Assembly: GCF_902785355.1 (NCBI RefSeq)
Contig: NZ_CACZYF010000002.1
Strand: one strand, 5' to 3'
DNA length: 64,000 nt
From: an uncultured Ruminococcus sp.
GTDB lineage: Bacteria > Bacillota > Clostridia > Oscillospirales > Acutalibacteraceae
Part shown: positions 7,965 through 53,592 of the stretch, piece by piece
How the letters are laid out: each line of letters opens with the position of its first letter
Position numbering within the stretch: position 1 is the first letter of the stretch
Translations under genes and position numbers: made by a program
Notes under the pieces: model-generated
The model's input: only the letters and a program-made list of their open reading frames with translations
Told to the model about the DNA's origin: nothing
The model's database searches: none

Positions 7965-7985
7965 ATTTTTCTCCGAAAAACGGAG

Positions 7986-10349: not shown

Positions 10350-10450
10350 GGTTACACCTCTTCTATCGTGGTTAATGATCAGCGATCAATTACAACCACA
10401 CTTTTAAGCATTTATTACACTGAGCAAAGCTTTATGCTTTGAGCTTTACG

Positions 10451-12763
10451 CTAATCCGCGATACCGGTACCGGTGAAGGTCACGGTAATAACCGTACCGG
10501 GCGTGACCTCGGTGCCCTCGGGCACGCTCTGAGATACTGCGGAGCTGCCGGATGAAACCATACCGGTCACGCTGACGTTGAGTCCGTAGGTCGCCGCGAT
10601 GTAGTTACAGTCGGATACGCTGTAGCCCGTGAAATTCGGTACCGTAACCTTATCGGTCTCGGCGGAATTATCGGTGTACAGCACAACGGTACCGCCGGAG
10701 GGTACGCCGGTGCCGGCGGGCGGGTTCTGGGATACGATCGTCGTACCCTCGCCCTTGAGCTGGGCGGTGAAGCCGTCGCTTTCAACCGCCTTGAGCGCAT
10801 CCTCGACGCTCATACCTGTATAGGCGCCGACGGAGGCGTCGATGTTGGATGCCTCGTCGTCGGTATATTGGGCGACGACCTCCAGATACGGAAGGACCTC
10901 GCTCATAATGCTGACAAATACAGGCGCCGCGACCGCGGAGCCGTAGTAGTTGCCCGCGGTAGGCGCGTCAAAGAATACCAGCGCAATATACTGAGGATTG
11001 TTAGCGGGTGAGAATCCGCAGAATGACGCGATATAGTCATCCGCGCCGTCTCCGTTGACGTCGATCAGCTTCTCGGACGTACCGGTCTTACCGCCGACGC
11101 GGTAGCCCGCGACATAGCCGTTAGAGCCGGAACCGGTAGTGGCGTTCTCCTCAAGGATACCGCACATTTCCTTAGAGACAGATTCGGAGATAACCTGCCG
11201 CTTGGTCTCGGTGGAAATATTCTTTACGACGTTGCCCTCCGCGTCAAGGATCTGCTTGACAACATGCGGCTGTACGATATAGCCGCCGTTCGCGACCGCG
11301 CTCGCCGCGGTGATCATCTGGATCGGGGTGATCGAGAAGTTCTGACCGAATGAAGCAACCGCCAAGTCGGTATCGAGCATGTTGCCCTCGATGCCGTCAT
11401 GGATGAAGAACTGGTCGTCGGATTCACCGGGAAGGTCAATACCGGTTTTTTCAGAGAAGCCGAACGCCTGATAGTAGTTCCAGAACTTTTCCTTGCCGAC
11501 CAGCTGGCCGATCTGGATGAAGCCGGGGTTACAGGAGTTGAGCAGACATTCCGCGTAGGTCTGTGAGCCGTGACCGGCGGTGTTGTGACAGTGGATGGTA
11601 TCGTCGTACAGCTGGAACGCGCCCGTACAGACGAAGCGGCTGTCCTTATTGACGACGCCCTCCTCGAGCGCCATGGAAAGCGTGACCATCTTAAATACCG
11701 AACCGGGATAGTAGGTGTCGGAGATCGCCTTGTTACGCCAATTACGCGCCAAAGCGGCGCTCTCCGCCTCGTTCTTTGCCTGAGTGATCAGCTTGTCGCG
11801 CTCCTCCTTTGACAAAAGGGAGGGATCCTCGGTATAGTCATGCTCGATCAGATAGTCGTTGTCGATCTTGTCGATCTCTTCCTTCTGATCCTTGTTGATG
11901 GTATAGGGATCGTTGGGATTGAAGCCGTTGACCGTCGCCATGGCGAGCACCTCGCCGTTATTGACGTTCATGATTACGCATACGCCGCGCTCCTTGACGT
12001 CGTTATCGATGACAGCCTGCTTCATATATTTCTCGGTAATGCTCTGGACGGTCTCATCAATGGTGAGTACGAGGGAGTTACCGTCGATGGCGCCGATGTT
12101 CTGGTTATAATCGAAGGGCATCTCGGTCTGGATACCGTTCTGAGCCGACACGATACGGCCGGGCGTTCCGGACAGATCGTCGTTGTACTGGTACTCTACG
12201 CCCGACAAGCCCTGATCCTCGGAGCCGGTGAAGCCGATGACCGAAGACGCGAGATCGTTATACGGATAATAGCGCTTATAGTCATCGAGAAGAGAGAGGA
12301 TACCCGACTTCTGATACTTTTCGGCGAGCTCCTCCTTGAGCTTTAAGATCTGCTCCTTCTCCTCGCTCTCGATCTTACGCTTGACGGAAACATAGTAGGT
12401 GTTCTGCTTCGTTTCCTCAAGAAGCTCCTTTTCATCGAGCTTGAGTATCTCGGAGAGGCGCTTCGCGACAAATGCGCGCTGCTCATCGCCCTCGGGTCCG
12501 TCGTCAAAATAAGCGGGAGCCATAACGACATGCCATACCGAAGCGGACTGCGCCAGGATCTTACCGTTGGTATCGTAGATAGTGCCGCGCTTTGCGGAGA
12601 TCGGCGTGTCAGAAAGCTGCTGTTCGATCGCCCTGCGCTGGAGTTCTTCGCCCTGTACCAACTGCAAGAACGCCAGTCGCGTGATGACCGCGCCGAAGCC
12701 CAGCGCGAGAATGATGACCAAGAGCCAGACGGTTCTTCTTCTGAGCTTTTGATTAGCGCCCAA
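10451..12763 (-). CDS. Class B penicillin-binding protein (PBP2B/SpoVD-like) with two C-terminal PASTA domains
   Basis: 770 aa. N-terminal TM, SxxK (SVFK), SxN (SCN) and KTG (KTGTSE) motifs, plus two PASTA-like repeats at the C-terminus. Confidence 0.9.
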   Translation of the reverse strand: MGANQKLRRRTVWLLVIILALGFGAVITRLAFLQLVQGEELQRRAIEQQLSDTPISAKRGTIYDTNGKILAQSASVWHVVMAPAYFDDGPEGDEQRAFVAKRLSEILKLDEKELLEETKQNTYYVSVKRKIESEEKEQILKLKEELAEKYQKSGILSLLDDYKRYYPYNDLASSVIGFTGSEDQGLSGVEYQYNDDLSGTPGRIVSAQNGIQTEMPFDYNQNIGAIDGNSLVLTIDETVQSITEKYMKQAVIDNDVKERGVCVIMNVNNGEVLAMATVNGFNPNDPYTINKDQKEEIDKIDNDYLIEHDYTEDPSLLSKEERDKLITQAKNEAESAALARNWRNKAISDTYYPGSVFKMVTLSMALEEGVVNKDSRFVCTGAFQLYDDTIHCHNTAGHGSQTYAECLLNSCNPGFIQIGQLVGKEKFWNYYQAFGFSEKTGIDLPGESDDQFFIHDGIEGNMLDTDLAVASFGQNFSITPIQMITAASAVANGGYIVQPHVVKQILDAEGNVVKNISTETKRQVISESVSKEMCGILEENATTGSGSNGYVAGYRVGGKTGTSEKLIDVNGDGADDYIASFCGFSPANNPQYIALVFFDAPTAGNYYGSAVAAPVFVSIMSEVLPYLEVVAQYTDDEASNIDASVGAYTGMSVEDALKAVESDGFTAQLKGEGTTIVSQNPPAGTGVPSGGTVVLYTDNSAETDKVTVPNFTGYSVSDCNYIAATYGLNVSVTGMVSSGSSAVSQSVPEGTEVTPGTVITVTFTGTGIAD

Positions 12764-25814: not shown

Positions 25815-26534
25815 TTACACATTCTTATTAACCAATCGGTTCTCCTCTTCGCCGGTCTCGAGATCGATGTAGCGGACGTAGAGGGAGATCTTGTTATTCT
25901 CGTCGAGGGCGTTCCACAGCTTATCGGTGAACGCGTCGATGCTGTCGGGGATCGCTACGCGCTCAGGCTCGCCCTGGAAGGTCGGGATCGGGTTGCCGTC
26001 GCAGACGTAGGTGTGGATGAAGTGACCCAAGCCCGCCTTAGACGGATAAGAGAAGCCGTAACGGGCGCAGTCGGTGCCCTCGGGGTCGATCGACTTTAAG
26101 ATCGACATCTGATAGCAGAAGTCGCCGTCCTCAAAGGTCAGCATACCGCTGATACGGGGGGTCAGGTTGGGCGCGTCAGGCTCGAACTCGCGCTTCTCGA
26201 GCGCCTTGTTGAAGCTCAGCCCCTTTTCAAGGCCATCGTAGACGGTGTCGGTCTGGTCGCCGTTGGTGACGATGAGATTGTTCTCATACTCGCGGATCGC
26301 TGCATAAATGATCAGCGAGGGATCCTCGACCTTGGAAGCGTCGAAGGGCTCGGTATAAACCGCACCGTCGCGCTCGGTGAAGATACGGTTGCGGGAATTC
26401 GCGCTGCGGCCCATGATAAAGTAGGCGGTGGCAGCCTTCGTCCCGTCGGCAGTCTTGCCGATGATGATACCGCGGCCGGGATAGGTGTTGCCGTCCAGCA
26501 GTTCGGTGATGTCGTTGATTTTGTAGATATTCAT
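25815..26534 (-). CDS. purO: Stand-alone IMP cyclohydrolase of the archaeal PurO type
   Basis: 239 aa containing NTYPGRGIIIGKTADG...YFIMGRSANSRNR, matching my memory of the PurO-like IMPCH family. Adjacent to the AICARFT-only purH. Confidence 0.75.
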   Translation of the reverse strand: MNIYKINDITELLDGNTYPGRGIIIGKTADGTKAATAYFIMGRSANSRNRIFTERDGAVYTEPFDASKVEDPSLIIYAAIREYENNLIVTNGDQTDTVYDGLEKGLSFNKALEKREFEPDAPNLTPRISGMLTFEDGDFCYQMSILKSIDPEGTDCARYGFSYPSKAGLGHFIHTYVCDGNPIPTFQGEPERVAIPDSIDAFTDKLWNALDENNKISLYVRYIDLETGEEENRLVNKNV

Positions 26535-26555
26535 TCCAAATTACCCCTTTATTAT

Positions 26556-26680
26556 AGAGAATAGTGAATAGAGAACAGAGAACGGTTTCTCAGACTCGCT
26601 TCGCTCGGACAATTATATGAATCCGAAACGCGAAGCGTTTTCCATAACTGTTATCTATTATCTGTTATCTAATATCTGTT
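26556..26680. repeat. Heptad-armed hairpin element, copy b (purN-purO spacer)
   Basis: Left arm AGAGAAT AGTGAAT AGAGAAC AGAGAAC GG. Core CTCGCTTCGCTCGGA-caattatatgaa-TCCGAAACGCGAAGCG. Right arm of CTGTTAT/CTATTAT units, which runs 23 nt into the 3' end of purN. Confidence 0.7.
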
Positions 26681-27266
26681 TTGCGATCTTTTCCACAGAC
26701 TGCGGGAGGATAATCCACTCAGCCTGTTCCATGACGCGCTTTTGCAGCACTTCGGGCGTATCGCCGTCGAGAATCTCGACCGCCTTCTGGGCGATGATCT
26801 CGCCGCCGTCGGGGATCTCGTTGACGAAGTGGACGGTCGCGCCCGTGACCTTGACGCCCTTCTCGAGCGCCGCCTCATGAACGCGCAGTCCGTAGTAGCC
26901 CTGTCCGCAGAAAGACGGGATCAACGACGGATGGACGTTGAGGATCCGGTGGTCAAAGCGCGCCGTGAAGCGCTCCGACAGGATGGACATAAAGCCCGCG
27001 AGGACGATCAGGTCGATCTCCCGCTCCTCTAAAGCCGCGATGATCGCGTCCTCAAAGGCTTCCTGGGTCTTCAACTCTTTTTTCGATATATACAGGTGCT
27101 CAATACCGGCGTTCTCTGCACGGGTGAGCGCGTAGGCGTTCGCGTTGTTTGAGATGACCAGCACGACCTCGCCGCTGCGGATCACGCCGCTGTGCTGCGC
27201 GTCGATGATCGCCTGCAGGTTGGTGCCGCCGCCGGACACGAGCACGGCTATCTTTGCCTTTAGCAT
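26658..27266 (-). CDS. purN: Phosphoribosylglycinamide formyltransferase
   Basis: Contains [20 protein letters not shown] and HPSLIP. 202 aa. Confidence 0.92.
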
Positions 27267-28309
27267 AATTCGATCTTCTCCCCGTTATCGGAGGTGACGA
27301 TCTCGCCGAGTCGGTAAGCGTCCTCGCCCTGAGCGCGCAGGATCGCGAGCGCCTCGTCAGCCTGATCAGCGGGTACGACGATACTCATGCCGACACCCAT
27401 GTTGAAGGTATTGAACATATCGCGCTCGGATATGCCGCCCTTCTCCCGGATCAGCTTAAAGATCGGCAGCACGCGGACGTCCGCCTTGCGGATCCTCGCG
27501 CACAGACCGTCGGGGATGGAACGCGGGATGTTCTCATAAAAGCCGCCGCCGGTGATGTGGGAGATACCCTTGACGTCGCACTTCTCAAGCAGCGCGAGCA
27601 CGGGCTTGACATAGATCTTAGTCGGAGTGAGCAGGGTCTCACCCACGCTTCTGCCGCCGAGTGCTTCTACCGGCGTCTTGATATCGGCGTTCTCGACGTC
27701 AAAGACCTTGCGCACCAGCGAAAAGCCGTTACTGTGAACGCCGGAGGACGGCAGCGCAATGATCACATCGCCCGCCTGCATCTTCGTATTATCGATGATC
27801 TTATCCTTATCGACCACGCCGGTGCTGTAGCCCGCGAGGTCATACTCATCCTCGGGATAGAAGCCGGGCATCTCGGCAGTCTCGCCGCCGATCAGCGCCG
27901 CGCCGCTCATCACACAGCCGTCGGCAACGCCCTTGACGATATCGGCGATCCGCTCGGGAACGTTCTTGCCGCAGGCGATGTAGTCGAGGAACAAGAGGGG
28001 CTTCGCGCCGACGCATATAATATCATTGACGCACATCGCCACACAGTCGATACCGACGGTATCGTGCTTATCCATCAGGAAAGCGAGCTTGAGCTTGGTG
28101 CCGACGCCGTCGGTACCGCTGACCAGAACCGGCTTGGTGATACCGGTCAGATCAATCTCGAAGAGTCCGCCGAAACCGCCTACGTCGGAGCATACGCCCT
28201 CCGTCGCGGTACGCGCGACATGCTGTTTCATCAGCTCGACCGCCTTGTAGCCGGCGGTGATATCCACGCCCGCCGCGGCGTAAGCTTCTGATTTGGAATT
28301 CAAATTCAT
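27260..28309 (-). CDS. purM: Phosphoribosylformylglycinamidine cyclo-ligase (AIR synthetase)
   Basis: Contains YAAAGVD...GGFGGLF...DGVGTK. Start set at MNLNSK. Confidence 0.95.
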
Positions 28310-28437
28310 AATTCTACCTTTCTGCTCATGCCAGAGCATTTACAGGAATAATGATACTAATACTAATCGGTTGAGATTGCCGCGGCTCCTTTGGGAGCCG
28401 CGCAATGACGATTTTATAAAGATGCGCGCATTCGCCG

Positions 28438-29862
28438 CTATTCTTCGCCGTCCCAGCAGTAGGTGCACAGCTCGCACTTATCGAGACCGATCGCCTCGAC
28501 GATACCGTCAAGGGACTGGAAGTCGAGAGAATCGAACTTCAGCTTCTCGCATATCGTTTCTCTGAGCCTTTTACCGCGCTCGGTAGCGCCGTCGGCATAC
28601 TCACGGATATGGTCGAAGCCCTCTTCTCCCTCCAGTTCCAAAATCACCCTGCGGGCAATCAGATCCATATCGGAGGTGTTGCGCGAGAAATTGAGGAACT
28701 TACAGCCGTACATGATCGGCGGGCACGCGGAGCGCATGTGAACGCTCTTGGCGCCGTTCTCATACAGGAACTCGACCGTCTCGCGCAGCTGGGTACCGCG
28801 GACGATAGAGTCGTCCACGAACAGCAGATCCTTGTCCTTGATCAGGTCATAGACCGGGATCTGCTTCATCTTCGCGATCTTGTTGCGGTCGTTCTGGTTG
28901 GTGGGCATAAAGGAACGCGACCAGGTCGGGGTGTACTTGATGAACGCGCGCGCAAAGGGCTTGCCGCTTGCGTTCGCGTAACCGATCGCGTGAGGCGTAC
29001 CGGAATCGGGCACACCGCCGACGTAATCGACGTCGATGTCGCCGAGATTCTCACGGTCGTGCTGTGCCATGATCACACCGTTACGATAGCGCATGACCTC
29101 AACGTTCACGCCCTCGTAGGTCGAGGTCGGATAGCCGTAATAGCTCCAGAGGAAGGAGCAGATACGCTTCTTCTTACCGGGCTTTGAGAGCTGCTTGAGG
29201 CTGTCGGGCGTAAGGCGAACGATCTCGCCGGGCCCGAGCTCGCGCTCGTCCTCGTAGCCGAGCTTCCGGTACGCGTAGCTCTCGAAGGATACCGCGTAAC
29301 CGTACTCGCTCTTGCCGATACACACAGGCAGTCGTCCTACCTTATCGCGCGCGGCGATCAGCGAACCGTCCTCACACATGATCAGGATGTTCTGTGTACC
29401 GTCGATGATGTTCTGAGCGAACTTGATACCCTCCGCAAAGCTCGACTGGGTGTCGATCAGCGCGGCGAGCAGCTCAGTGGTGTTGACCCTGCCGCCGGTC
29501 ATCGCGTCAAAATGGCCGTAAGAATGCTTGAGGTGCTTTGCGATCAGATCATCGGCGTTGTTGATGATACCGACGCTGCAGATGGCATAGGTGCCGAGGT
29601 GCGAACGGATCAGCATCGGCTGGGGATCGGTGTCGGAGATAACGCCGATCGCCGAGGTACCCTGCATCTCTTCAAAAATATGTTCAAACTTTGTGCGGAA
29701 AGGTGCGTTTTCTATATTGTGGATCTTGCGTTGTAAGCCGATCTCGGGATCGTAGGCGGCAAGACCGCCGCGACGGGTTCCGAGATGGGAGTGGTAGTCA
29801 ACGCCGAAGAACACATCCATCATACAATCCTCGGTGGATGTGATACCAAAAAAGCCTCCCAT
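28438..29862 (-). CDS. purF: Amidophosphoribosyltransferase-like protein lacking the N-terminal Cys nucleophile
   Basis: PRTase body (LLFVDDSIVRGTQL). The N-terminus reads MGGFFGITSTEDC, and the ATG follows a GGAGG RBS with a 5-nt spacer. The longer ORF begins at a TTG. Confidence 0.8.
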   Translation of the reverse strand: MGGFFGITSTEDCMMDVFFGVDYHSHLGTRRGGLAAYDPEIGLQRKIHNIENAPFRTKFEHIFEEMQGTSAIGVISDTDPQPMLIRSHLGTYAICSVGIINNADDLIAKHLKHSYGHFDAMTGGRVNTTELLAALIDTQSSFAEGIKFAQNIIDGTQNILIMCEDGSLIAARDKVGRLPVCIGKSEYGYAVSFESYAYRKLGYEDERELGPGEIVRLTPDSLKQLSKPGKKKRICSFLWSYYGYPTSTYEGVNVEVMRYRNGVIMAQHDRENLGDIDVDYVGGVPDSGTPHAIGYANASGKPFARAFIKYTPTWSRSFMPTNQNDRNKIAKMKQIPVYDLIKDKDLLFVDDSIVRGTQLRETVEFLYENGAKSVHMRSACPPIMYGCKFLNFSRNTSDMDLIARRVILELEGEEGFDHIREYADGATERGKRLRETICEKLKFDSLDFQSLDGIVEAIGLDKCELCTYCWDGEE

Positions 29863-29880
29863 AATTACCTCCAAATAATC

Positions 29881-29998
29881 GGTGAATGATGAATGACTGA
29901 CGGTGAATGGTATTGAGAAACGCTGACGCGTTCCGGATTTCTATAATTCGGGTACGGGCAGCGCCCGCCCTTCACCATTCATCGTTCGCTGTTCACCC
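29881..29998. repeat. Heptad-armed hairpin element, copy e (purE-purF spacer, inverted orientation)
   Basis: Arms of GGTGAAT/GATGAAT units and CCATTCA/TCGTTCG/CTGTTCA units. Inner hairpins AACGC-tgac-GCGTT and GGGC-agc-GCCC, with CCCTTCACC. Confidence 0.7.
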
Positions 29999-30002
29999 GT
30001 TT

Positions 30003-30491
30003 TTATAATCTGTCCGCGATGCCCGCGTCCTTCTCTAAGACGACCGCCGCGTCAGCTCTGCGCTTATCGTCAAGCTTCTTTGCGAGCTCCTTATCCTCTA
30101 CAGCGAGGATCTGAGCGGCGAGCAGTGCGGCGTTCGCAGCGCCGTTGAGGGCGACGGTAGCGACCGGGATACCGGTAGGCATCTGCACGGTGGATAAAAG
30201 CGCGTCAAGACCGTCCATCATGCCGCCCTTACAGGGAATACCGATGACGGGCAGGGTGGTGTTGGCGGCGATCGCACCGGCAAGGTGAGCCGCCATGCCC
30301 GCCGCCGCAATCAGCACGCCGAAGCCGTTCTCACGGGCGTTCAGCGCGAAGTCGCGCGCCTCAACCGGTGTGCGATGAGCGGAATATACATGTACCTCGT
30401 AGGGTACACCGAGGGTCGTCAGCATGTCGGTCGCCTTTTTGACGATCGGCAGATCGCTGTCCGAACCCATGATAATACCGATTTTCTTCAT
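30003..30491 (-). CDS. purE: N5-carboxyaminoimidazole ribonucleotide mutase
   Basis: Contains [15 protein letters not shown]...AGMAAHLAG. Start follows a GGAGGTA RBS. Confidence 0.95.
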
Positions 30492-30512
30492 AGTTACCTC
30501 CAAATTGCCTCA

Positions 30513-30746
30513 GTGAGAAGTGAGAAGTGAGAAGTGAGGAGTGAGGAGTGAGGAGTGAAGGGCGGGACACCCGCCCCCGATTTGTGTAATACATTTGATA
30601 AAACAATACCGCCTGCAACCCTATAATGAGCCGCATACATTTGAAAAGCAGACATTGTATCAATCCAAAAGCCGTCAGGCTTTCACAAAATTCCTAACTC
30701 CTAACTCCTAACTCTAACCGACTCCTAACTCTAATTCCTCATTCTC
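30513..30746. repeat. Heptad-armed hairpin element, copy c (guaB-purE spacer, the largest copy)
   Basis: 3x GTGAGAA, 3x GTGAGGA and GTGAAGG. Then GGGCGGG-aca-CCCGCCC-CCGAT, a 90-nt spacer, AAGCC-gtca-GGCTT, and a right arm of CTCCTAA-type heptads. Confidence 0.8.
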
Positions 30747-30754
30747 AGCTTTTC

Positions 30755-32260
30755 TTACTTCATCGCGGAGCTCTTATCCTTCTGGATAACGTCGTGAGCG
30801 CCGCCCTCGACGATCGAGGTGGCGGAAACGAGGGTGAGCTTCGCCTTCTGCTGTAATTCGCGGATGGTCAGCGCGCCGCAGTTACACATGGTCGACTTGA
30901 CCTTGGAGAGCGACAGGGCGACGTTGTCCTTTAAGGAACCCGCATAAGGCACGAGGGAATCGACGCCCTCTTCGAAGCTGAGCTTCTTGTCGCCGCCGAG
31001 GTCGTAGCGCTGCCAGTTGCGCGCGCGCTGGGAACCCTCGCCCCAGTACTCCTTATAATAGGTTCCGTTGATGCTGACCTTGTTGGAGGGGCTTTCATCA
31101 AAGCGGGCGAAATAACGGCCCAGCATGATGAAGTCAGCGCCCATCGCCAGCGCCAGCGTGATATGATGATCGTAAACGATACCGCCGTCGGAGCAGACGG
31201 GGATGTACACGCCGGTTTCTTCAAAATACTTATCTCTCTCGGCGCAGACCTCGATCAGCGCGGTCGCCTGGCCGCGTCCGATACCCTTGGTCTCACGGGT
31301 GATACAGATGGAGCCGCCGCCGATACCGACCTTGATGAAGTCGGCGCCGCAGTCGGCGAGATAACGGAAGCCCTCGGCGTCAACGACGTTGCCCGCGCCG
31401 ACCTTGACGCTGTCGCCGTAGTGCTCGCGGATCCAGTCGATGGTCAGCTTCTGCCACTCCGAGAAGCCCTCGGAGGAGTCGATGCACAGCACGTCGGCGC
31501 CCGCCTCGATCAGGGCGGGGACACGCTCGGCATAGTCGCGGGTGTTGATACCGGCACCGACCACATAGCGCTTATGCTCGTCGAGGAGCTCGTCAGGATT
31601 CTGCTTATGGCTGTCGTAGTCCTTGCGGAATACGAAGTAGCGCATTCTGCCGTCCTTGGTGATAACAGGCAGGGAATTGAGCTTATGATCCCAGATGATG
31701 TCGTTGCACTCGCTGAGGGTAGCGCCCTCATAAGCGTAGATCAGCTTGTCGAACGGGGTCATGAAGTCAGCGACCTTCTCCGACTTATCCATACGGCTGA
31801 TACGGTAGTCGCGGCTGGTGACGACGCCGAGCAGCTTGCCGTCGGGAGCGCCGCCCTCGGTCACGGCGAGGGTGGAGTGACCGGTACGACGGGTCAGCTC
31901 AATGACGTCGGCAAGGGTCGCGTCGGGACGGATGTTACTGTCGCTCTGGACAAAGCCCGCCTTATAGCTCTTGGCTCTCTTGACCATCGCCGCCTCGTCC
32001 TCTACGCTCTGGGAGCCGTAGATGAAGCTCACGCCGCCCTGGGTCGCGAGGGCTACGGCGAGGCGGTCGCCGGATACCGCCTGCATGATCGCGGAGACCA
32101 GCGGGATATTCATGGTGATCACGCTCTCCTCCTCCTTCTTATACTTGACCAGCGGGGTCTTGAGGGTGACGTTCGCGGGGATGCACTCCGATGACGAGTA
32201 GCCCGGGATCAGCAGATATTCGTTAAAAGTATGTGCGGGTTCATTGATAAAGGTTGCCAT
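30755..32260 (-). CDS. guaB: IMP dehydrogenase (with CBS pair)
   Basis: 501 aa. Catalytic loop [15 protein letters not shown]-barrel motifs, and a CBS insert. Confidence 0.85.
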
Positions 32261-34247: not shown

Positions 34248-34261
34248 AATATGCTCCTTTT

Positions 34262-34373
34262 CAGATAACAGAGAAAAGAGAAAAGAGAAAAGAGAACAGT
34301 GAAGGGCGGAATACCCGCACCCGATCAAATATCTGTACTCTCTTATCTGTTACCTGTAATCTGTTATCTATTC
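34262..34373. repeat. Heptad-armed hairpin element, copy d (pyrF-pyrE spacer)
   Basis: 3x AGAGAAA, AGAGAAC and AGTGAAG. Then GGGCGG-aata-CCCGCACCCGAT and a right arm of TATCTGT/TACCTGT/AATCTGT heptads, ending at the pyrF stop. Confidence 0.75.
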
Positions 34374-36710: not shown

Positions 36711-36811
36711 AGGTTCACCGAACGTTAATTATTTTTTCACGCTTGACCCGCCGTTACGGATTATTCAGCAAATCGCTGCCCTTTGTAAAAGGCGGGATAA
36801 AGACGCGCGCG

Positions 36812-39985: not shown

Positions 39986-40020
39986 AATAATACCTCCCAA
40001 ATAACGACGGCTTTGCCGCC

Positions 40021-40108
40021 GGTGAATGGTGAACGCTGAATGGTGAGCAGTATCGGGAGGGCTGCGCCCTCACCTGTTTCTGCTTGTCGCCTTTCATCGT
40101 CCCGATTC
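40021..40108. repeat. Heptad-armed hairpin element, copy f (pyrC-carB spacer, inverted orientation)
   Basis: GGTGAAT GGTGAAC GCTGAAT GGTGAGC, then ATCGGGAGGGC-tgc-GCCCTCACC, then a pyrimidine-rich arm. Confidence 0.6.
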
Positions 40109-40134
40109 TATTTTAATCTTTTCTAAAAACCATC

Positions 40135-42918: not shown

Positions 42919-44028
42919 ATGAAAGTAAAATCTGTTTTATCTTTATCACTCTGTATGGCGATGATGATGTCCGTATCCGTCAAAGCAGAAAGTCGAATGC
43001 TCGGTGATGTCGACGGTGACGGCGAGATCAGTATTACCGACGCAACGATTATCCAGCGATACACGGTCGGTATCAAGACGCCTGTCGCTGTTACTTCTTC
43101 TGTTGCCGACATTGACGGCGATCACACCGTGACCGTGATGGATGCTTCACACCTGCAACGCTGGATGGTGAATGTATCAGATAGCTGTCCGATCTCGAAG
43201 CCTATCTATGAACCGTCGCCGACTGATCGGTATGTTACGGTCGAGGGCGTCACCTTCGATTTGAAGAAAGTTCCTTCGGAAATCACTCTTACAGATAAAA
43301 GCATTACCTTGATGCTCTTGCCTAAGAGTGAGATCGATCCCCACGATATCACGACAGTGGTCAATAACGGTCAATACATTAATCAGATTGACTACACTGA
43401 CAGCCGTTTCAAGGAGAGTTACCTGATCGAAAAGGAGAACGGAATCCTTCACGGTTATGACTGCGAAGTGACCGACAGAGAGGATAATCCTCTGGCTTAC
43501 GTCTACGCTCACTACAGGAGCGGGCTGTGCTTTCCTTTTCAGACGACAATCAGCTGTATCGGAGAAGCGCACGGAATCTTTCCGATCGAGCTGTATTACA
43601 AGGGCAAGTTGATACGACGAGTGACTGTCAAGGTCGACGTCAACCGTACTCCCGAGGTTATCGAAAAGACGTTGAACATCGTTCGGTCGGCTGAGAAAGC
43701 CTGTTGGACTTCGTCCATGACCGACAGAGAAAAGATGAAAGCCTTTGCCGAATACATTCGGGATCACTATACATATGACCAAATCATGTGCGTTGAGGGA
43801 GCGGTTTTGACCGCCTTTGCCGCCAGAGATCTGGGACTTGAATCCATGCTTCTCTATCCGGGCGGTGAAGCAACCCAGCACTGTGACCGCCATATCGTTA
43901 CATATAATCTGTATGCAAATACAGCCGTTCCGGGCGGACACTGCGCTTGCCTGGTCAAGTATGATAACTGCACCATGCGCTATGATGTGCAGGGTGAGCT
44001 GTGTATTATCAAGGAATATGCACGCTGA
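42919..44028 (+). CDS. Secreted dockerin-domain protein with a possible transglutaminase-like cysteine peptidase C-terminal domain
   Basis: Signal peptide MKVKSVLSLSLCMAMMMSVSVKA. Two dockerin Ca-binding repeats (GDVDGDGEISITDATIIQRY and ADIDGDHTVTVMDASHLQRW). C-terminal Cys...His...Asp pattern (MCVEGAV...GGHCACL...RYDV). Confidence 0.8.
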   Translation: MKVKSVLSLSLCMAMMMSVSVKAESRMLGDVDGDGEISITDATIIQRYTVGIKTPVAVTSSVADIDGDHTVTVMDASHLQRWMVNVSDSCPISKPIYEPSPTDRYVTVEGVTFDLKKVPSEITLTDKSITLMLLPKSEIDPHDITTVVNNGQYINQIDYTDSRFKESYLIEKENGILHGYDCEVTDREDNPLAYVYAHYRSGLCFPFQTTISCIGEAHGIFPIELYYKGKLIRRVTVKVDVNRTPEVIEKTLNIVRSAEKACWTSSMTDREKMKAFAEYIRDHYTYDQIMCVEGAVLTAFAARDLGLESMLLYPGGEATQHCDRHIVTYNLYANTAVPGGHCACLVKYDNCTMRYDVQGELCIIKEYAR

Positions 44029-45138: not shown

Positions 45139-48100
45139 TCATTTTATCGAATCCATAATATTCAACAAACTCTGGTAACTATCCACATCGTGATATCTGA
45201 CCTCACTTGTCGAGATATTGTTGAACAGCTTCTTGGCGCATTTGATCTTCGCCTGCTCAATCGGTCTGAGACTCAGGCTCTCCATGGTGCCCTTTGTCTC
45301 GGCGACAAAGTAGATATGTTTGACGGTGCCCTCATAAAACGCAATCGCCCAGTCGGGAGAATAGTTGCCAACCGGCGTCGGGATATGGAAGCCCTTCGGG
45401 AGCTTTGCGTAGACACATACTTCATCCGCAGTATCCAGATCCTCGGCAAATCGGCGCTCGATACTCTGCTCGGCGCTACCGTCGGTGAACACATAATCCT
45501 GAACCGCTTTATTCGCCTTAAACGCCTGATCTATGGGACGGGAATTCTTCTCAGCAGTAAAGATTCCGCTGTCATACTCGCCATCAATCTGATTGTACGA
45601 GATATGCTCTACGATTGCAGTCGCCTTCTGCTCATTGATCAAGCGGCTGATCTTGGTGATGAATTCCTCGGGGTTGTTGCGGAACATACTGAGCTTCTGT
45701 TCGGAGATGCCTTTCAAAATCCGTACAACCGTCCTTCGGGTTAGCTTCGTCTGTTCGGCAATCTTACCTACCAGATCATATTTGACAGCGCTCTTTTCAC
45801 GATGTTTCAATACTTTTGTTTTGGTATGTTCTCTGCTGAAAGAATCCCCGCGATCAACCTCGTGCCGTTCCATATCATCCTTCTGTGAACCGACGGTCGC
45901 TGTATATTGCAACTCTGCGACAACCAGCTTGTCATTGATATGGATGACCGCGTTGCGCACCAGTTCATCGCTGTCGAAGTCGACCGTATAAGCGTACTTG
46001 CGGTTAATCTGCTTCCAGAGCGTCTGGAACTCTTTCTTATAGAAATTATCGTTCAGCGGATTATCCTTGACCTTTGTCTCGCTGCCATCGACAAACATAC
46101 GCTCCAGCACACTGTCATCATAGATCGCCTGAATCAGACCGTGGATGCCTTCTGCCATACTCTCCATCCCATTGGGTAATTCAGCAAGAGTACCCATCTG
46201 CGCGTCCATGCGGTATTTATCGGTGACTTTGCGCTGCATATCGACATATCCATTAAATATCAGGTAGAACTCGATATTGTTTGCCATATCGTCGGTAATC
46301 AGCGTCGGCACGCCGTCCATCTTGACATACTTGCCCTTGAAGTACTCGGAGGTTGCTGTCTCGGGACGATCATACAGCTCCGCCTTGATATCCTTCTGCA
46401 GATCGCCGATGAAGGACTTGTAGCTCTCGCTGGCTATGACGGTCAGCATATTGATGTCATGCACCTGATCGCCGACACTCTCCACATCAATGCGGCTGCC
46501 GTTACGATCGACGCACAAGCGCAGTCCGCGTCCAACCTCCTGCCGCTTGGCAGTATTACTGTCGGAATGTTTCAAGGTACAGATCTGGAACACATTGGGA
46601 TTATCCCATCCTTCGCGCAAGGCAGAATGGGAAAAGATAAATCGTGTCGGCTCCTCAAAGCTGAGGAGTCTTTCTTTATTTTTCAGAATCAGATCGTAAG
46701 CGGAAATATCATCGGAGAATTCACTCCCGCGTTTGAGCTTACTATCAACCGCATGACCCTTTTTATCGATGCTGAAATAGCCCTTATGCACCTTGCTCGG
46801 ATCACTGCATTTCTCGCGCAGATATTTCTGGTACGGAGTCTGCTCCAAGCCGATGTAATCATTGAAAACACTATTATACTCTTCTTCAAATATCTTGCCG
46901 TACTCGCCGAGCTGTTCTTCCCCGTTCTCATCATAGAGGCGGTACTTCGCGACCTCGTCGATGAAGAACAGCGACAGACACTTGATGCCGCGGTTAAAGA
47001 GCTGCTCCTCTTTCTCAAAGTGCGAGAGGATCGTCTCGCGAATCTGAATGCGGCGCATATCCTTTTCGGATACGTCGCCGACCACATTACCCGTGCTGAT
47101 CACTTCGCCGTTAGTGAAGGTTACTGTATGGTTGATCGGATTGATCTCGGATACGACAAAGCCCTTATACTGCTCCATCTCTTTGGAAAGGAAGAACAGA
47201 TCGTCACCCACGCCGACAGTGCGCGACTCACGGTTGATCGACTTGTTATAACCGATCTCCATCTCGATTTTTGCCATCGGAGGCTTGTTCTTCGACAGAA
47301 TGATCTGTTCCAAATACAGATACTTGTCCGTGCCGCGGAAGTTCTTGACCTCAAAGCCCTTGACCTCGATCTTCTTGACCAGACGCTTATTGAACGCATC
47401 CAGCGCGTCAAGCACATAGACAAGGTTATGCTGTGTTTTATGAGTTGCGGAATAATTCAGAGAAAACAGAGGGTTAAAGTTCTTCAACGCCTTCTGTGTG
47501 ACCTCACCGCCCATCTTCTGTGGCTCGTCCAGAATCAGGATCGGACGGTTCGCCTTGATGACGTCAATTGGACGACGGGAGCCGAACTCGTCACGCTTGC
47601 TGTAGATGATACGGCTCTCCTTATTCCTCGCACCTTCCTTGAGCGAGGACGCAAACGCCTGCGTATTGATGATCATGACATTCAGCCCCGAGTTACCGGA
47701 GAAGGAGTCGAGCTGATTGAGGTTCGAGCTGTTGTAGATGAAGAATCGCGCTTTCTTGCCGTAATGCTCCATGAAGTGATCCTCCATGGTCTCGAACGAC
47801 TTTTTCACGCCCTCGCGGATCGCGATACTCGGCACGACGACAATGAACTTCGTCCAGCCGTAACGCTTGTTCAGCTCGAACATCGTCTTGATATAGACAT
47901 AGGTCTTGCCGGTACCGGTCTCCATCTCGACGTCCAGACTGCACCGTCCCAGATCGCCCACCAACGCGGATGACGTCTTGATATTGTTCTCCTGCTGGAT
48001 ACGGCGGATATTCGCGAGCAGCTGATCATCGGAAAGGCTGATACGCTCATTCTTATAGCCGATATCATATATGTAGTTGTCATCAAACTCATCGCCGTCG

Positions 48101-48246
48101 AGCGTCGCCTGAATGTTCTCGAACTTCTTAGAGCCGAGGTCACGAGTGTACCGCGTACCGGTATCCATCCCCTGACCGCTGAAAACATTCACAACCGCCT
48201 CCACCGCGTCAGTCTGATACTGTTGGATTTTGAATTTGAAATTCAT
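45139..48246 (-). CDS. res: Type III restriction enzyme Res subunit (helicase plus PD-(D/E)xK endonuclease)
   Basis: Contains METGTGKTYVY (motif I), LILDEPQKMGG (motif II), and a C-terminal nuclease motif SPDWAIAF...YFVAETKG. Start set at MNFKFKIQQYQ, after AAGGTGA. Confidence 0.9.
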   Translation of the reverse strand: MNFKFKIQQYQTDAVEAVVNVFSGQGMDTGTRYTRDLGSKKFENIQATLDGDEFDDNYIYDIGYKNERISLSDDQLLANIRRIQQENNIKTSSALVGDLGRCSLDVEMETGTGKTYVYIKTMFELNKRYGWTKFIVVVPSIAIREGVKKSFETMEDHFMEHYGKKARFFIYNSSNLNQLDSFSGNSGLNVMIINTQAFASSLKEGARNKESRIIYSKRDEFGSRRPIDVIKANRPILILDEPQKMGGEVTQKALKNFNPLFSLNYSATHKTQHNLVYVLDALDAFNKRLVKKIEVKGFEVKNFRGTDKYLYLEQIILSKNKPPMAKIEMEIGYNKSINRESRTVGVGDDLFFLSKEMEQYKGFVVSEINPINHTVTFTNGEVISTGNVVGDVSEKDMRRIQIRETILSHFEKEEQLFNRGIKCLSLFFIDEVAKYRLYDENGEEQLGEYGKIFEEEYNSVFNDYIGLEQTPYQKYLREKCSDPSKVHKGYFSIDKKGHAVDSKLKRGSEFSDDISAYDLILKNKERLLSFEEPTRFIFSHSALREGWDNPNVFQICTLKHSDSNTAKRQEVGRGLRLCVDRNGSRIDVESVGDQVHDINMLTVIASESYKSFIGDLQKDIKAELYDRPETATSEYFKGKYVKMDGVPTLITDDMANNIEFYLIFNGYVDMQRKVTDKYRMDAQMGTLAELPNGMESMAEGIHGLIQAIYDDSVLERMFVDGSETKVKDNPLNDNFYKKEFQTLWKQINRKYAYTVDFDSDELVRNAVIHINDKLVVAELQYTATVGSQKDDMERHEVDRGDSFSREHTKTKVLKHREKSAVKYDLVGKIAEQTKLTRRTVVRILKGISEQKLSMFRNNPEEFITKISRLINEQKATAIVEHISYNQIDGEYDSGIFTAEKNSRPIDQAFKANKAVQDYVFTDGSAEQSIERRFAEDLDTADEVCVYAKLPKGFHIPTPVGNYSPDWAIAFYEGTVKHIYFVAETKGTMESLSLRPIEQAKIKCAKKLFNNISTSEVRYHDVDSYQSLLNIMDSIK

Positions 48247-48269
48247 AGGATCACCTTGCATTTGCTTTG

Positions 48270-48782
48270 TTACTTAGCTATATTGTTATCTTGAAGCTTT
48301 ATTCTTTTTCTAATATCATTAACCAGTTTACGATTTTGTTCTATTTGAATGTCTTTATTTGATCTCCATGCAAACAATCCGTTTGATAATCCGATAAGGT
48401 TCTTGCTGGTCTCTAACAAGTCATTTTTTGAAGGGATTCCTATATGAATAAACGGCATTATCTCAATAAATCCCTGCAATTCAGAAGCTATGTCACGTAA
48501 TTCATTAGATGCTTTATCCAACTCATCTCTATTGGCTTTATCAACCTTAAGAGCAGGATCAGAATAATAACGTGCTTGATATGTAAGGTGATAAGCTATT
48601 TTTTGTTTAATCTCCCTATACTTCTGTAAAGGAGTAATCCAAAGAGTGAACAAAATTTGCCCTAGAATAAATACTATAACACCGCTAAGCAACGTAATGC
48701 CAAAGGTTATCCATGGACTTGAATTTGCGTTATTCACTGTTATCTCCAATGGGGTAGCTATTTCATCAAAAGTTGCACTCAT
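48270..48782 (-). CDS. Small membrane protein (N-terminal TM hairpin plus helical domain), function unknown
   Basis: 170 aa. TM region WITFGITLLSGVIVFILGQILFTLWI. GGAGA RBS. Visibly more AT-rich than res and mod. Confidence 0.6.
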   Translation of the reverse strand: MSATFDEIATPLEITVNNANSSPWITFGITLLSGVIVFILGQILFTLWITPLQKYREIKQKIAYHLTYQARYYSDPALKVDKANRDELDKASNELRDIASELQGFIEIMPFIHIGIPSKNDLLETSKNLIGLSNGLFAWRSNKDIQIEQNRKLVNDIRKRIKLQDNNIAK

Positions 48783-48799
48783 GTTTATTCTCCAACGCC

Positions 48800-49600
48800 T
48801 TAGTAGTTGCCATGCTCCATTAATGTTTTTGCGTAGTCATAGAGATTATCATAATGAAGCAACGCAATATCTTTGTCTTTCAAGAATTCTCTACGTATCC
48901 TGTATGTTTTATCTGTAAAATCCGACCTTCTACCCGCAACAACCACATAATGAAAGCGTGTAGAATCAAACGTATACATTTCATCCGGCAACTGTTCATT
49001 TGTATATTTTTTTAAATCATTTGTAATTGAACTGAAACCAAATTCTAAATATCGCTGCCACTCTTTAATCTGTTTAATACCATCTCTGAATGCTTTTCCC
49101 AGTTCTCCGTCCTCAATTGTTATATTTGAATTGGGGTGTTCAAACTCTACCAGCACAAAACTATATCCATCAGATGATCTGCCAATCAATAAATAATCGG
49201 CTCTATAGTCGTTTCCTATTGGAAACTCTCTGAATAAAAAAGCATCATGATGTCCGAAGCTAAATAACGTAAATATTGATGCAGGTATCATATAATACTG
49301 TTTTTCCTTAATAAAACGTAGTATTTTTGCTTCATTTAAATCATTCGTACAGAGCAAGTCCTTATACTCATTACAAATATCGCTTATCCTCTGCTTATCT
49401 CTTAGCTCAACAGGATCAAGATAATTATTAGGGAATAAACTCATATTATGCCTAACTGCACTTGGATAACTTGTATAGGGACTTGGATGAAACATTCTTT
49501 CAACATGATACTCTTTATCCAATCTTTCTTTTTCATCAATCTCATCTTGAAATAACGAAGAATAATCCCTATCATATATTCCGAGTTTTATTGAACCCAT
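48800..49600 (-). CDS. PD-(D/E)xK nuclease-fold protein resembling DUF4263 (the Shedu SduA domain)
   Basis: 266 aa. The segment NEAKILRFIKEKQYYM...IGNDYRADYLLIGRSSDGYSFVLVEFEHP...QIKEWQRYLE recalls the DUF4263 pattern (E..F...D-[FY]-L...hhhhE-x-K). The usual Lys position reads E-F-E-H. AT-rich. Confidence 0.45.
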   Translation of the reverse strand: MGSIKLGIYDRDYSSLFQDEIDEKERLDKEYHVERMFHPSPYTSYPSAVRHNMSLFPNNYLDPVELRDKQRISDICNEYKDLLCTNDLNEAKILRFIKEKQYYMIPASIFTLFSFGHHDAFLFREFPIGNDYRADYLLIGRSSDGYSFVLVEFEHPNSNITIEDGELGKAFRDGIKQIKEWQRYLEFGFSSITNDLKKYTNEQLPDEMYTFDSTRFHYVVVAGRRSDFTDKTYRIRREFLKDKDIALLHYDNLYDYAKTLMEHGNY

Positions 49601-49601
49601 T

Positions 49602-51638: not shown

Positions 51639-52305
51639 TTTCTGCCTCCTGATTGTATGAAACTATATTAATTGCTCTGTCTAAAGTCTTTTTTTGATCT
51701 TCCAATAATTGATCAAATTCCAAGTTGTGCTTTTCTTCAGTTTGTACCATTGTATTAGTGAGTGATTCAGATAACAGTTCAGACACTAAAAAAGAAAGAA
51801 ATGCTGCCATAGTGAGGATATCTTGATTTGCAATTATTCTCGAATTAAAAGACTCATATGCAATAACCAAGAAAAAAGACAAAAAACCACAAGATATTAA
51901 AACGAAATCCATTGCCCTTTCAACTTTAATATACCTTTTCGCTTTATTAATACGTTTATTAAATTGAGAAATATATTTATCTCTAATTGAAACTACTTTT
52001 TCATATTCAGTTTCTGCGTGATAGCCCAAAATAGTTGCAGTTTTTTCTTGTAAATAGGATATCTCATTAAACCTTTTTTTATCGCTTTCTATTCTTTTCA
52101 TCATCTGCTCTTGAGCATTAATCATGGTACGCGACAGAGACGCTCCGGTAAACCAAAAAGTAGCAATCGTTGTTGCAGCCACAATTTTGTCCCAACCATC
52201 TATATTCCAGTTATACTTTTGAGATAATAAATGAACAATAAAGGAAACAAAAACGAATACAGTAAATGCAAGCATTAATGGGTTAAGGTAATAGTATTTC
52301 TTCAT
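51613..52305 (-). CDS. Four-TM membrane protein, function unknown
   Basis: 230 aa, with TM helices at about residues 8-27, 40-58, 133-150 and 165-182. Very AT-rich. The ATG abuts the DUF4391 stop (0-nt gap), and the 3' end overlaps the mod start by 26 nt. Confidence 0.6.
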   Translation of the reverse strand: MKKYYYLNPLMLAFTVFVFVSFIVHLLSQKYNWNIDGWDKIVAATTIATFWFTGASLSRTMINAQEQMMKRIESDKKRFNEISYLQEKTATILGYHAETEYEKVVSIRDKYISQFNKRINKAKRYIKVERAMDFVLISCGFLSFFLVIAYESFNSRIIANQDILTMAAFLSFLVSELLSESLTNTMVQTEEKHNLEFDQLLEDQKKTLDRAINIVSYNQEAENGQDEDAE

Positions 52306-52932: not shown

Positions 52933-52939
52933 ATTTGCC

Positions 52940-53590: not shown

Positions 53591-53592
53591 GT

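Follow-up and report, generated by a model that had tools for sequence, protein, structure and literature searches.

In the genome of an uncultured Ruminococcus sp., the 263-nt gap between guaB (30755 to 32260) and purE is occupied by nested hairpins with arms made of tandem 7-nt repeats. This raises the question of whether such an element is an RNA structure of the operon transcript or a repeat that lives in the DNA. The locus is part of contig NZ_CACZYF010000002.1, analyzed here over a stretch of about 64 kb (the window), and identical proteins carry this organism name at NCBI; the neighboring genes are all on the minus strand, and the real start of purE is the ATG at 30491. The element in this spacer (the main copy) is one of seven convincing copies in the window, six intergenic and one inside a gene. 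Each consists of a purine-rich heptamer arm, zero to three small conserved modules, and a pyrimidine-rich heptamer arm. On balance, these elements appear to be dispersed mosaic repeats of the foldback type, with their origin, spread, and turnover taking place at the DNA level. Their anatomy, statistics, polymorphism, independence of orientation, and wider distribution are read directly from the sequences. The main copy has the following parts (z compares the predicted RNA fold with 200 shuffled sequences):

30511 to 30748: whole element, in the guaB-purE spacer (z = -3.66)
30511 to 30561: left arm, on the plus strand three GTGAGAA, three GTGAGGA, and GTGAAGG, as read in the sequence and by Tandem Repeats Finder
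30555 to 30581, minus strand: module M1, ATCGGGGGCGGG-tgt-CCCGCCCTTCAC
30582 to 30661: AT-rich center of about 80 nt, unlike the centers of complete elements elsewhere
30662 to 30686, minus strand: module M2, GTGAAAGCC-tgac-GGCTTTTGGATT
30690 to 30748: right arm, on the plus strand TTCCTAA CTCCTAA CTCCTAA, then less regular units

In the mRNA, which corresponds to the minus strand, the left arm becomes the 3' pyrimidine-rich arm (CTTCAC, three TCCTCAC, and three TTCTCAC), and the right arm becomes the 5' purine-rich arm of the GGAGTTA type. Tandem Repeats Finder places period-7 arrays at 30512 to 30558 (6.7 copies, 97% matches) and at 30692 to 30718. On the plus strand, M1 is seen as the GC hairpin GGGCGGG-aca-CCCGCCC followed by CCGAT; its outer end, CCTTCAC, is repeated in the neighboring heptads. 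M2 reads AATCC-AAAAGCC-gtca-GGCTTT on the same strand and combines a conserved GAAA/TTT base with a covarying upper stem and a GGATT tail. The preliminary description of this DNA, made from the sequence alone, had given the same layout of heptad arms, GC hairpin, spacer, and second hairpin, and both arms are indeed period-7 arrays. Its further statement that the arms form a stem with one mismatch every 7 nt is correct for three heptads, which pair as AGTGAGGAGTGAGGAGTGAGGA / AGTTAGGAGTTAGGAGTTAGGA; farther out, the pairing is less regular. The predicted fold of the 263-nt spacer has an energy of -87.6 kcal/mol, compared with -70.2 +/- 4.8 kcal/mol for dinucleotide shuffles (z = -3.66), and none of the 200 shuffles was as good. 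The proposed multicopy family of nested hairpins, with arms more complementary than in shuffled controls, is likewise confirmed, as all seven copies fold beyond their shuffles (z from -2.3 to -5.8).

Module M1 (TCGGGTGCGGG-loop-CCCGCCCTTCAC) is found four times in the window, in both orientations. Its pattern GTGAAGGGCGG..CCGCNCCCGAT has two exact matches there, with none expected, and looser inverted copies are located at 29948 to 29975 and 40052 to 40073. M1 is also present in loci L029 and L031 and, in nearly identical form, in 25 JGI metagenome contigs that match the exact pattern. About 10 of these 25 matches lie within approximately 100 nt of a contig end, as would be expected of a high-copy repeat that breaks assemblies.

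Module M2 (GRGAAA-stem-loop-stem-TTTnGGATT) has three copies in the window and a fourth that is degenerate. When 11 instances, taken from six genomes or contigs, are compared, 98.5% of the cells are paired, and two of the six base pairs change on both sides (CG/UA/GC and GC/CG). This covariation is reached by none of 500 shuffles, and in slid controls the paired fraction drops to 17 to 55%. Module M3 is the 18-mer ACTCGCTTYGCTCGGACA, which occurs exactly twice in the window (8020 to 8037 and 26594 to 26611), where 0.14 occurrences are expected. Read on one strand, the complete element consists of the purine-rich arm, M2, an AT-rich center or M3, M1, and the pyrimidine-rich arm. This form is seen in the main copy and in the metagenome contigs L142, L154, and L160, which have centers of 38 to 95 nt with unrelated sequences.

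The arms are closely tied to the ends of these modules. In the window and the 25 metagenome contigs, the heptads adjacent to M1 are always NNTTCAC-like (TCCTCAC, TGTTCTC, CGTTCAC, TATTCAC, TCTTATT, and others) and echo the last heptad of M1, CCTTCAC; the opposite arm is complementary and GTGAANN-like. M2 often starts with GTGAAA, so that the arms look like expanded terminal repeats of a core that ends in GTGAA...TTCAC. A census of 152 period-7 arrays from the window and all fetched loci, with a partner limit of 330 nt, shows an inverted partner for 63 of them and a direct partner for 2. Of 33 5' arms, 32 are rich in purines, and of 30 3' arms, 28 are rich in pyrimidines. As the arms are complementary, this polarity is identical on both strands; it results from the constant outward orientation of M1, with its TTCAC end. 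Target-site duplications were rejected as an explanation of the heptads, since the arms are inverted rather than direct. An artifact of sequencing or assembly was rejected because the same elements are present in independent assemblies and in isolate genomes.

The window heptamers belong to three families, each common to two or three copies. The mean pairing score of the arms is 14.6 for arms of the same copy versus 8.0 for cross pairs, which reach up to 18 within a family. In family A, CAGATAA lies opposite TTCTCTG, always with the same periodic T/G mismatch, and its arms can be aligned across the purN-purO and pyrF-pyrE spacers of the window and the purE-purF spacer of the related-species contig L162. 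Arms related to family A are also found beside M1 in the ftsL-spoVD spacer of L029, where the window sequence is unrelated. Arm complementarity is roughly 70 to 85%, and the periodic mismatch indicates that each arm is homogenized on its own, not copied from the opposite arm. The earlier view that every copy builds its arms from a heptamer of its own is thus only partly true, because the families recur across spacers and genomes. The diversity is nonetheless large (79 distinct heptads among 151 arrays); single-linkage clustering at one mismatch puts 135 of the 151 arrays into one network and is uninformative. The likeness of some arms to Shine-Dalgarno (GGAG) and anti-Shine-Dalgarno (CTCC) sequences is incidental, most arms being of the GNGAA or GATAA type.

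The way in which the heptads next to M1 repeat its terminal heptad could also be produced locally. In such a scenario, which we consider very unlikely, each hairpin would be a nonmobile by-product that formed independently in place, through heptamer slippage beside stable GC hairpins and through intrastrand template switching. Length polymorphisms of one and two heptads fit this explanation, as does the over-representation of heptanucleotide repeats in bacterial intergenic DNA, which has been ascribed to polymerase slippage (PMC4692102). Against it stands the finding that M1, M2, M3, and shared arm families with their characteristic periodic mismatch occur at many nonorthologous sites and in different genera; the mismatch also argues that the second arm did not mainly arise by copying of the first.

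The other copies in the window and the gene clusters that contain them are as follows:

5.4 to 13.5 kb: gene cluster murA-murG-spoVE/ftsW-mraY-spoVD-ftsL
6739 to 6841: degenerate relative in the murG-murA spacer, with a short TTCTCAC arm (6821 to 6840) that overlaps the end of murG
7982 to 8092: copy in the spoVE-murG spacer, arms of four AACGGTT and four TTATCCG, M3 at 8020 to 8037 (z = -4.57 for 7965 to 8089)
18 to 30.5 kb: pur operon
26553 to 26682: copy in the purN-purO spacer, arms of the ATAGAGA and TTATCTG-TTATCTA types, family A (z = -2.29 for 26535 to 26657)
28376 to 28406: plain GC hairpin in the purF-purM spacer, GCGGCTCC-caaa-GGAGCCGC, without heptamer arms
29880 to 29998: copy in the purE-purF spacer, whole element inverted, arms of the GGTGAAT type, family B (z = -4.12 for 29875 to 30002)
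30.7 to 41.4 kb: guaB and the pyr operon
34262 to 34371: copy in the pyrF-pyrE spacer, arms of four AGAGAAA and of the TTATCTG type, family A, M1 at 34299 to 34325 (z = -3.79 for 34254 to 34373)
40020 to 40112: copy in the pyrC-carB spacer, inverted, arm of the GGTGAAT type, family B (z = -4.27 for 40001 to 40134)
50008 to 50090, minus strand: in-gene copy, GGAGTKT / CTCCAAA heptamer hairpin, family C (z = -5.78 for 50000 to 50095)

Period-7 arrays are detected by Tandem Repeats Finder in every listed copy. The purN-purO copy carries M3 at 26594 to 26611 and M2 at 26620 to 26642, and its right arm extends into the end of purN. In the purE-purF copy, M2 is at 29915 to 29939 and M1 at 29948 to 29975; the M1 of the pyrC-carB copy (40052 to 40073) is degenerate, ATCGGGAGGGC-tgc-GCCCTCAC. 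The spoVE-murG copy is kept in L029, a related species with 92% identity. Six of the seven long operon spacers that were initially thought to be filled by such elements contain convincing copies. The seventh, at 6739 to 6841, has an M2-like hairpin (GAAAACGC-aca-GCGTTCTC) and no convincing second arm; its fold (z = -0.59) is equaled by 50 of 200 shuffles. No such element is found in the spoVD-mraY, carB-pyrK, and purF-purM spacers (z from -0.35 to -2.0) or in the ftsL-spoVD spacer, which was folded without shuffle controls, and two of these four contain small heptamer-like hairpins. The plain GC hairpin of the purF-purM spacer is similar to hairpin modules found in a second repeat family, described below.

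Two smaller structures lie near these copies. In the spoVD-mraY spacer, an AAAGCTT-type heptamer array (10427 to 10452, 3.7 copies) forms a small hairpin, and L029 is shorter at this site by exactly 14 nt, i.e., two heptads. Upstream of the murG start, the hairpin TTCTCCG-ttttt-CGGAGAA (7965 to 7990) follows the 3' arm of the spoVE-murG copy and is separate from it. Its 3' half includes the GGAG of the murG ribosome-binding site, which could be occluded.

Comparison of strains shows how quickly these spacers change. PurE is encoded identically on 20 metagenome contigs, which represent strains of one species, and the identity of coding DNA to the window is 100% in L001, 96 to 97% in L003, and 94 to 97% in L006 to L009. 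The guaB-purE spacer of L003 contains the same element with shorter arms (a 3' arm of 25 nt versus 52 nt), and that of L006 to L009 is an unrelated 181-nt sequence with other hairpins (GGCTCCCTTTCTCAAGGGAGC ... CCACCTCCCTTAGGAAAGGGAGGC). In the same four contigs, the purE-purF spacer is an unrelated 79-nt sequence with the mini-hairpins TTCGCGAAGCGAA and TTTGCAAAGCAAA. At purN-purO, L003 keeps both heptamer arms, lacks M2 and M3, and has 18 nt of further heptads at the site of 59 nt in the window. The pyrF-pyrE element is one heptad shorter in L003 and L161. Both the heptamer unit and its copy number thus turn over between strains. No flanking direct repeat was seen by eye in the comparisons.

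Contigs with PurE proteins 91 to 99% identical represent related species. In every one of them, the same five junctions are long and hold some hairpin mosaic, with differing contents. Thus, the guaB-purE spacer contains GTGGTCA / TGTTCAC arms around an M1-like hairpin in L162 to L165, GGAGT-type arms in L166, and the second repeat family in L161. The purE-purF spacer contains GATAACA / TTCTCTG arms with M1 and M2 in L162 and L163 and CTAAGAA / TTCTTAG arms in L164 and L165. At pyrF-pyrE, L166 has twelve GGTTACY heptads, and L162 and L164 carry the second family; L163 and L165 also carry it, with an additional insert of about 125 nt nested in it. Of eight such spacer variants, four fold at z from -2.7 to -4.4, and the others fold more weakly.

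The preliminary description also predicted copies beyond the window, and these are found in sister strains, related species, and rumen and gut metagenomes. Period 7 is the commonest tandem-repeat period in the sampled DNA (86 arrays), and the period-7 arrays are concentrated in the window and in genomes of rumen and gut Clostridia, where 8 kb can contain as many as 10 arrays. These Clostridia show the same architecture, often with REP-like palindromes headed by GTAG and with M3-like units in inverted doublets at the center.

The second repeat family is MITE-like, is found in the sister strains and species, and has ends that are themselves hairpins (GGCTCCCTTnnnAAGGGAGC ... CCACCTCCCTTnnnAAGGGAGGC). 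Its sites include L003 12088 to 12385 (purF-purM), L006 1689 to 1869 and L161 4320 to 4500 (guaB-purE), and positions ~700 to 870 of L162 to L165 (pyrF-pyrE). It is inserted into preexisting hairpins: in L003, a 267-nt element of this family interrupts the plain GC hairpin that corresponds to 28376 to 28406, and in L163 and L165 the family hosts the nested 125-nt insert. Its end motif adjoins M1 in many rumen metagenome contigs.

The occupation of the same junctions in every relative is the main reason to keep considering these elements as selected cis-acting RNA structures of polycistronic mRNAs. Such structures would provide segmental stability, sites for RNase III, Y, or J, or tuning of downstream translation, and heptamer arms would be a simple way for a long stem to evolve. 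We regard this reading as possible but unlikely; it and the DNA-repeat reading are not mutually exclusive. The pyrF-pyrE, guaB-purE, purE-purF, and purN-purO spacers are strongly hairpinned in all relatives despite replacement of their sequences, and a generic hairpin would be functional in either orientation. Instead of T runs, a Shine-Dalgarno sequence follows the arms, and this signal for the next gene lies immediately beyond the stem. Scans of the 26.4- to 34.5-kb region find no terminator-like sites in the element-bearing spacers, the total of such sites equaling the shuffle expectation. Intrinsic terminators are rejected for lack of a GC hairpin with a T run in the scanned spacers, and the elements are presumably read through and cotranscribed with their operons. 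The same scan finds no sigma-70 promoter consensus in these spacers, including the AT-rich center of the main copy, where a pur promoter is not demonstrated.

The strand-specific evidence points the other way. Read along the mRNA, two M1 copies (30555 and 34299) point forward and two (29948 and 40052) point backward, and the order of M1 and M2 is reversed in two of the four window copies. Three copies fold better in the sense strand, three in the antisense strand, and one equally well in both, and no enrichment of G-U pairs is seen in the sense strand. Strains of the same species differ in the presence, length, and type of element, and a generic stem needs no conserved modules with fixed ends. 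Among 24 classifiable paired-arm elements, 19 are located between codirectional genes, 2 between convergent and 2 between divergent genes, and 1 inside an open reading frame (ORF). The 19 would suit a role in transcripts; however, the resulting 83%, or 19 of the 23 that lie between genes, is close to the share expected for a Firmicute genome, in which about three quarters of gene gaps are codirectional, and some copies lie upstream of divergent gene starts. The role in transcript processing or stability that was originally implied thus gains no specific support, given the two orientations, equal folding of the strands, a translated copy, and unrelated spacer sequences in strains with identical PurE.

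The translated copy, at 50008 to 50090, is located within the mod gene of a type III restriction-modification system and is read in frame (...ESGVLSVESGVEKTNSSTFQSPN...). The linker that holds it is hypervariable, with 0 to about 80 residues among homologues. In the homologue P0003 (75% identity), the corresponding position holds another heptamer hairpin (AGGAATT / CTCCTAA arms, -24.5 kcal/mol), and P0004, a close relative of P0003, has none. The corresponding segments of the window mod, P0003, and P0004 are 93, 78, and 42 nt long, all in frame. An RNA role specific to operons does not easily account for a hairpin in a protein linker that tolerates it.

In the DNA-level reading, the element has small conserved hairpin modules in the middle and terminal repeats that would have grown by slippage into heptamer arrays, with heptad numbers shifting through replication slippage. 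Modules and other small hairpin elements would be gained, lost, or nested at hairpin apexes. The recurrence of arm families at new sites indicates that arms travel with the element, which might move by means of a trans-acting enzyme or recombination between copies. It would persist where it is tolerated, i.e., in untranslated gaps between codirectional genes and in one flexible protein linker. The slippage, the mobility of whole elements, and any effect on mRNA are inferred. Once cotranscribed, the elements would form very stable mRNA hairpins of -35 to -88 kcal/mol, which, by analogy with REP/BIME, probably act as generic exonuclease barriers or RNase targets. We favor the view that their behavior is that of fast-changing selfish DNA rather than of a tuned RNA switch.

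Several observations weigh against this interpretation. Occupation of the same five operon junctions by a hairpin mosaic in every relative examined could mean that structure is selected rather than merely tolerated. The arms stay complementary and similar in length while the heptad changes, even in a coding region; such comaintenance requires either selection for pairing or a coupling mechanism. No clean pair of filled and empty sites with a target-site duplication was found, and the strain polymorphisms are replacements, not simple insertions. The window contains no transposase or RAYT gene, and none of 30 scanned ORFs encodes a Y1 transposase. An all-against-all BLASTP comparison of 3,522 ORFs reveals no shared protein family near 120 of the M3 loci described below; what their flanks share is limited to generic families (ABC ATPases, histidine kinases, GGDEF proteins, and penicillin-binding proteins) and spurious ORFs over the repeat, with no transposase among them. 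Finally, copy number, placement, and orientation refer to the window, i.e., to ~64 kb of the host genome.

The heptamer-armed foldback family is apparently undescribed. As had been anticipated, it has no Rfam counterpart: at the gathering score, the whole window yields only a tRNA and a SAM riboswitch, and at E <= 10, the 26500 to 30800 region and L038 yield only chance-level matches. A literature search for descriptions of heptamers, hairpins, Ruminococcus, or MITEs returned nothing on these elements. CRISPR arrays are rejected as an explanation, since units of 7 nt are repeated in tandem here and form inverted arms, and the only match to a CRISPR repeat is at chance level (L038, E = 0.16).

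The earlier statement that the architecture cannot be placed near REP/BIME is too strong, as the elements form BIME-like mosaics and REP-like palindromes occur in related ones. Like the REP and BIME of Proteobacteria, they combine short conserved imperfect palindromes with other short motifs in extragenic mosaics, are present in many copies per genome between cotranscribed genes, form stable mRNA hairpins, serve as targets of further insertion, and are polymorphic among strains. The differences include the Firmicute host, the lack of a visible RAYT in the 64-kb window, and the long inverted tandem-heptamer arms, which are not part of BIMEs; we know of no REP or BIME with heptamer-array arms. 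None is found in PMC3733652, PMC2817692, or PMC3116915.

Strict REP/BIME elements, spread by a RAYT encoded elsewhere in the genome, are nevertheless a highly improbable identity. M1 is a conserved imperfect palindrome of 27 nt, within the 20- to 40-nt size of REP. Related rumen genomes have GTAG-headed palindromes (TGTAGGGG...CCCCTACA) within the same heptamer-armed mosaics and M3-like units in REPIN-like inverted doublets. However, REP palindromes carry a conserved GTAG (or CGTC) tetranucleotide at one end (PMC3733652), and M1 is flanked instead by ATCGGG and CTTCAC. The intergenic elements of the window contain no palindrome with either tag, no GTAGGG...CCCTAC palindrome is present in its spacers, and no Y1 transposase is seen among the window ORFs examined.

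The elements resemble MITEs in size (80 to 260 nt), terminal inverted repeats, strong predicted hairpins, intergenic location with occasional in-frame intragenic copies, and site content that varies between strains, here by replacement. In contrast to MITEs, their inverted ends are variable tandem arrays, with heptamer unit and array length differing between copies, rather than a fixed transposase-binding sequence, and the conserved parts are internal. No parent insertion sequence was found in the flanks of 120 M3 loci.

Tandem heptamers in intergenic regions with embedded very small units are also characteristic of the cyanobacterial STRR and Nostoc SDR, whose tiny conserved units are apparently inserted into one another. 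The Nostoc SDR, which Elhai and colleagues are said to have described in 2008 (Genome Res 18:1484; cited in PMC3116915 and PMC2884548), are reportedly units of ~20 to 27 nt associated with heptamer arrays and hairpins. The phylum and sequences differ: the STRR heptamers are CCCCAGT, TTGGTCA, and CAACAGT, whereas the units here are of the GNGAA, GATAA, or GGAGT types. STRR arrays use a few genome-wide heptamers, compared with the 79 distinct heptads in this sample, and descriptions of them do not mention an obligate inverted pairing around a module. The nearest architecture, as an analogy only, is that of the Drosophila and other eukaryotic foldback (FB) elements. These have long inverted arms of short tandem repeats, the number of which differs between copies and arms, and a variable center, but they are eukaryotic and kilobase-scale, with other repeat periods.

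Intergenic heptamers are also known from Xanthomonas and Nostoc (GGGAATC and GGGGAYT; PMC4692102) and from Beggiatoaceae (TAACTGA; PMC4679880). They are over-represented, vary in length among close relatives, and in some Xanthomonas arrays form inverted pairs. Unlike the elements described here, they comprise one heptamer per genome, mostly in single direct arrays, without conserved hairpin modules inside; their proposed functions are the formation of G-quadruplexes or the control of translation.

M3 is not confined to Clostridia and is a separate, more novel lead than the heptamer-armed family. A scan for the exact 18-mer in one genome per species (596 Gb) found it in at least 120 species-representative stretches (L011 to L130) from at least nine phyla, where ~35 would be expected by chance according to our own estimate. 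The matches come from Beta-, Gamma-, and Deltaproteobacteria-type lineages, Bacteroidota, Actinomycetota, Acidobacteriota, Gemmatimonadota, Verrucomicrobiota, Patescibacteria, and many Firmicutes. They include Marinobacter (many species), Thauera, Polaromonas, Halorhodospira, Lysobacteraceae, and delta-proteobacterial and Myxococcales genomes, as well as Bacteroidales, Tannerella, Sphingobacterium, Acidimicrobiia, Thermoanaerobaculia, Gemmatimonadota, Opitutaceae, Saccharibacteria, and Kaiserbacteria. Only two matches are found in IMG/VR, and phages are not an obvious carrier.

M3 is mostly located at the apex of a long hairpin, and the sequence of the stem is specific to the lineage or the copy. 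Among the matches listed, at least 8 bp enclose M3 in 96 of 122 occurrences (median, 27); when downstream flanks are swapped between matches, this number falls to 54 of 122 (median, 5). Relative to codirectional flanking genes, its orientation is split 16 to 15 by crude ORF-based gene calls, which are unreliable in GC-rich genomes. On one strand, the core of M3 is CGAGCGAAGCGAG, a GCGAAGC mini-hairpin flanked by tandem G-A pairs. The GCGAAGC DNA mini-hairpin is extraordinarily stable, with a melting temperature of 76.5 C, and is found at initiation sites of single-strand replication (PMC13037366). A K-turn was considered for M3 and rejected, as the 3-nt bulge is not beside the tandem G-A pairs.

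Searches for an explanation of this distribution returned no protein family, Rfam family, or paper. Rfam finds only tRNAs at 22 M3-bearing loci and, at the gathering score and at E <= 10, nothing relevant at proteobacterial or clostridial loci, and a full-text literature search with M3 14-mers on both strands found no paper. BLAST of proteobacterial M3 hairpins against plasmids gives two weak matches under transposase genes (E = 6e-3) and one match to a Variovorax chromid without an annotated feature. In this chromid (L167, 1390 to 2100), an ~700-nt composite palindrome between convergent genes contains the M3 variant ACTCGCTTCGCTCAAACA and many GCCGAGCGAAGCGAnGGCC units. In a member of the Xanthomonadales (L038, 1460 to 1600), M3-capped hairpins are separated by inverted arrays of 6-nt units, (GCAACG)n and (CCTTGG / CCGTTG)n. 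Arms of short repeats next to M3 thus also exist outside the Clostridia. In an uncultured Clostridium (L020, 2597 to 2871), a copy of M3 (2743 to 2760) lies between two adjacent tRNA genes.

It is conceivable, although we consider it rather doubtful, that M3 is a very small pan-bacterial hairpin cap that is installed at hairpin tips, or has hairpins grown around it, by a widespread mechanism. Candidates for such a mechanism would be a hairpin-specific single-strand DNA transposase and a primase-like or repair activity, and the heptamer-armed foldbacks of Ruminococcus would then share the capping process with the hexamer-armed elements of Xanthomonadales. If the shared cap is not a biophysical coincidence, it would point to an unnamed mechanism or mobile agent.

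Other features of the window include a motif, ..GTTnTyCCGCCTTTT..(hairpin)..AACGGCGGGTCA.., which is common to the carB-pyrK spacer (36711 to 36811) and the purF-purM spacers of relatives (L162, 6559 to 6693; L164, 6538 to 6672; L166, 6526 to 6658). It has a conserved long-range stem and no Rfam match at E <= 10 and may be an undescribed leader or attenuator of nucleotide operons. The remaining features are as follows:

42919 to 44028, plus strand: dockerin-domain protein, consistent with a cellulosome-bearing Ruminococcus
45139 to 56823, minus strand: defense island with type III res (45139 to 48261), a Shedu-like SduA_C protein (48800 to 49600), mod (49602 to 51638), two DUF4391 proteins (52306 to 53596), and an SNF2 helicase resembling DISARM DrmD (53593 to 56823)
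57753 to 57847, minus strand: SAM riboswitch (S-box), 58.9 bits versus a gathering score of 44.4, directly upstream of a 105-aa ORF (57438 to 57755)
60019 to 61539, plus strand: large serine recombinase with Resolvase, Recombinase, and zinc-ribbon domains, adjoining the defense island

If this description holds, abundant gut and rumen Clostridia carry an unlisted repeat family, which in the window occupies about one intergenic gap per 8 to 9 kb. The long-noted over-representation of intergenic heptamers appears here in arrays that are tied to module ends and to an inverted partner. As the elements differ between strains that are otherwise 95 to 97% identical, they are a source of strain-level variation, usable as typing markers, and a likely cause of contig breaks in metagenome assemblies. 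Within essential cell wall, purine, and pyrimidine operons, they would put hairpins of -35 to -88 kcal/mol into the mRNAs, with a possible effect on expression.

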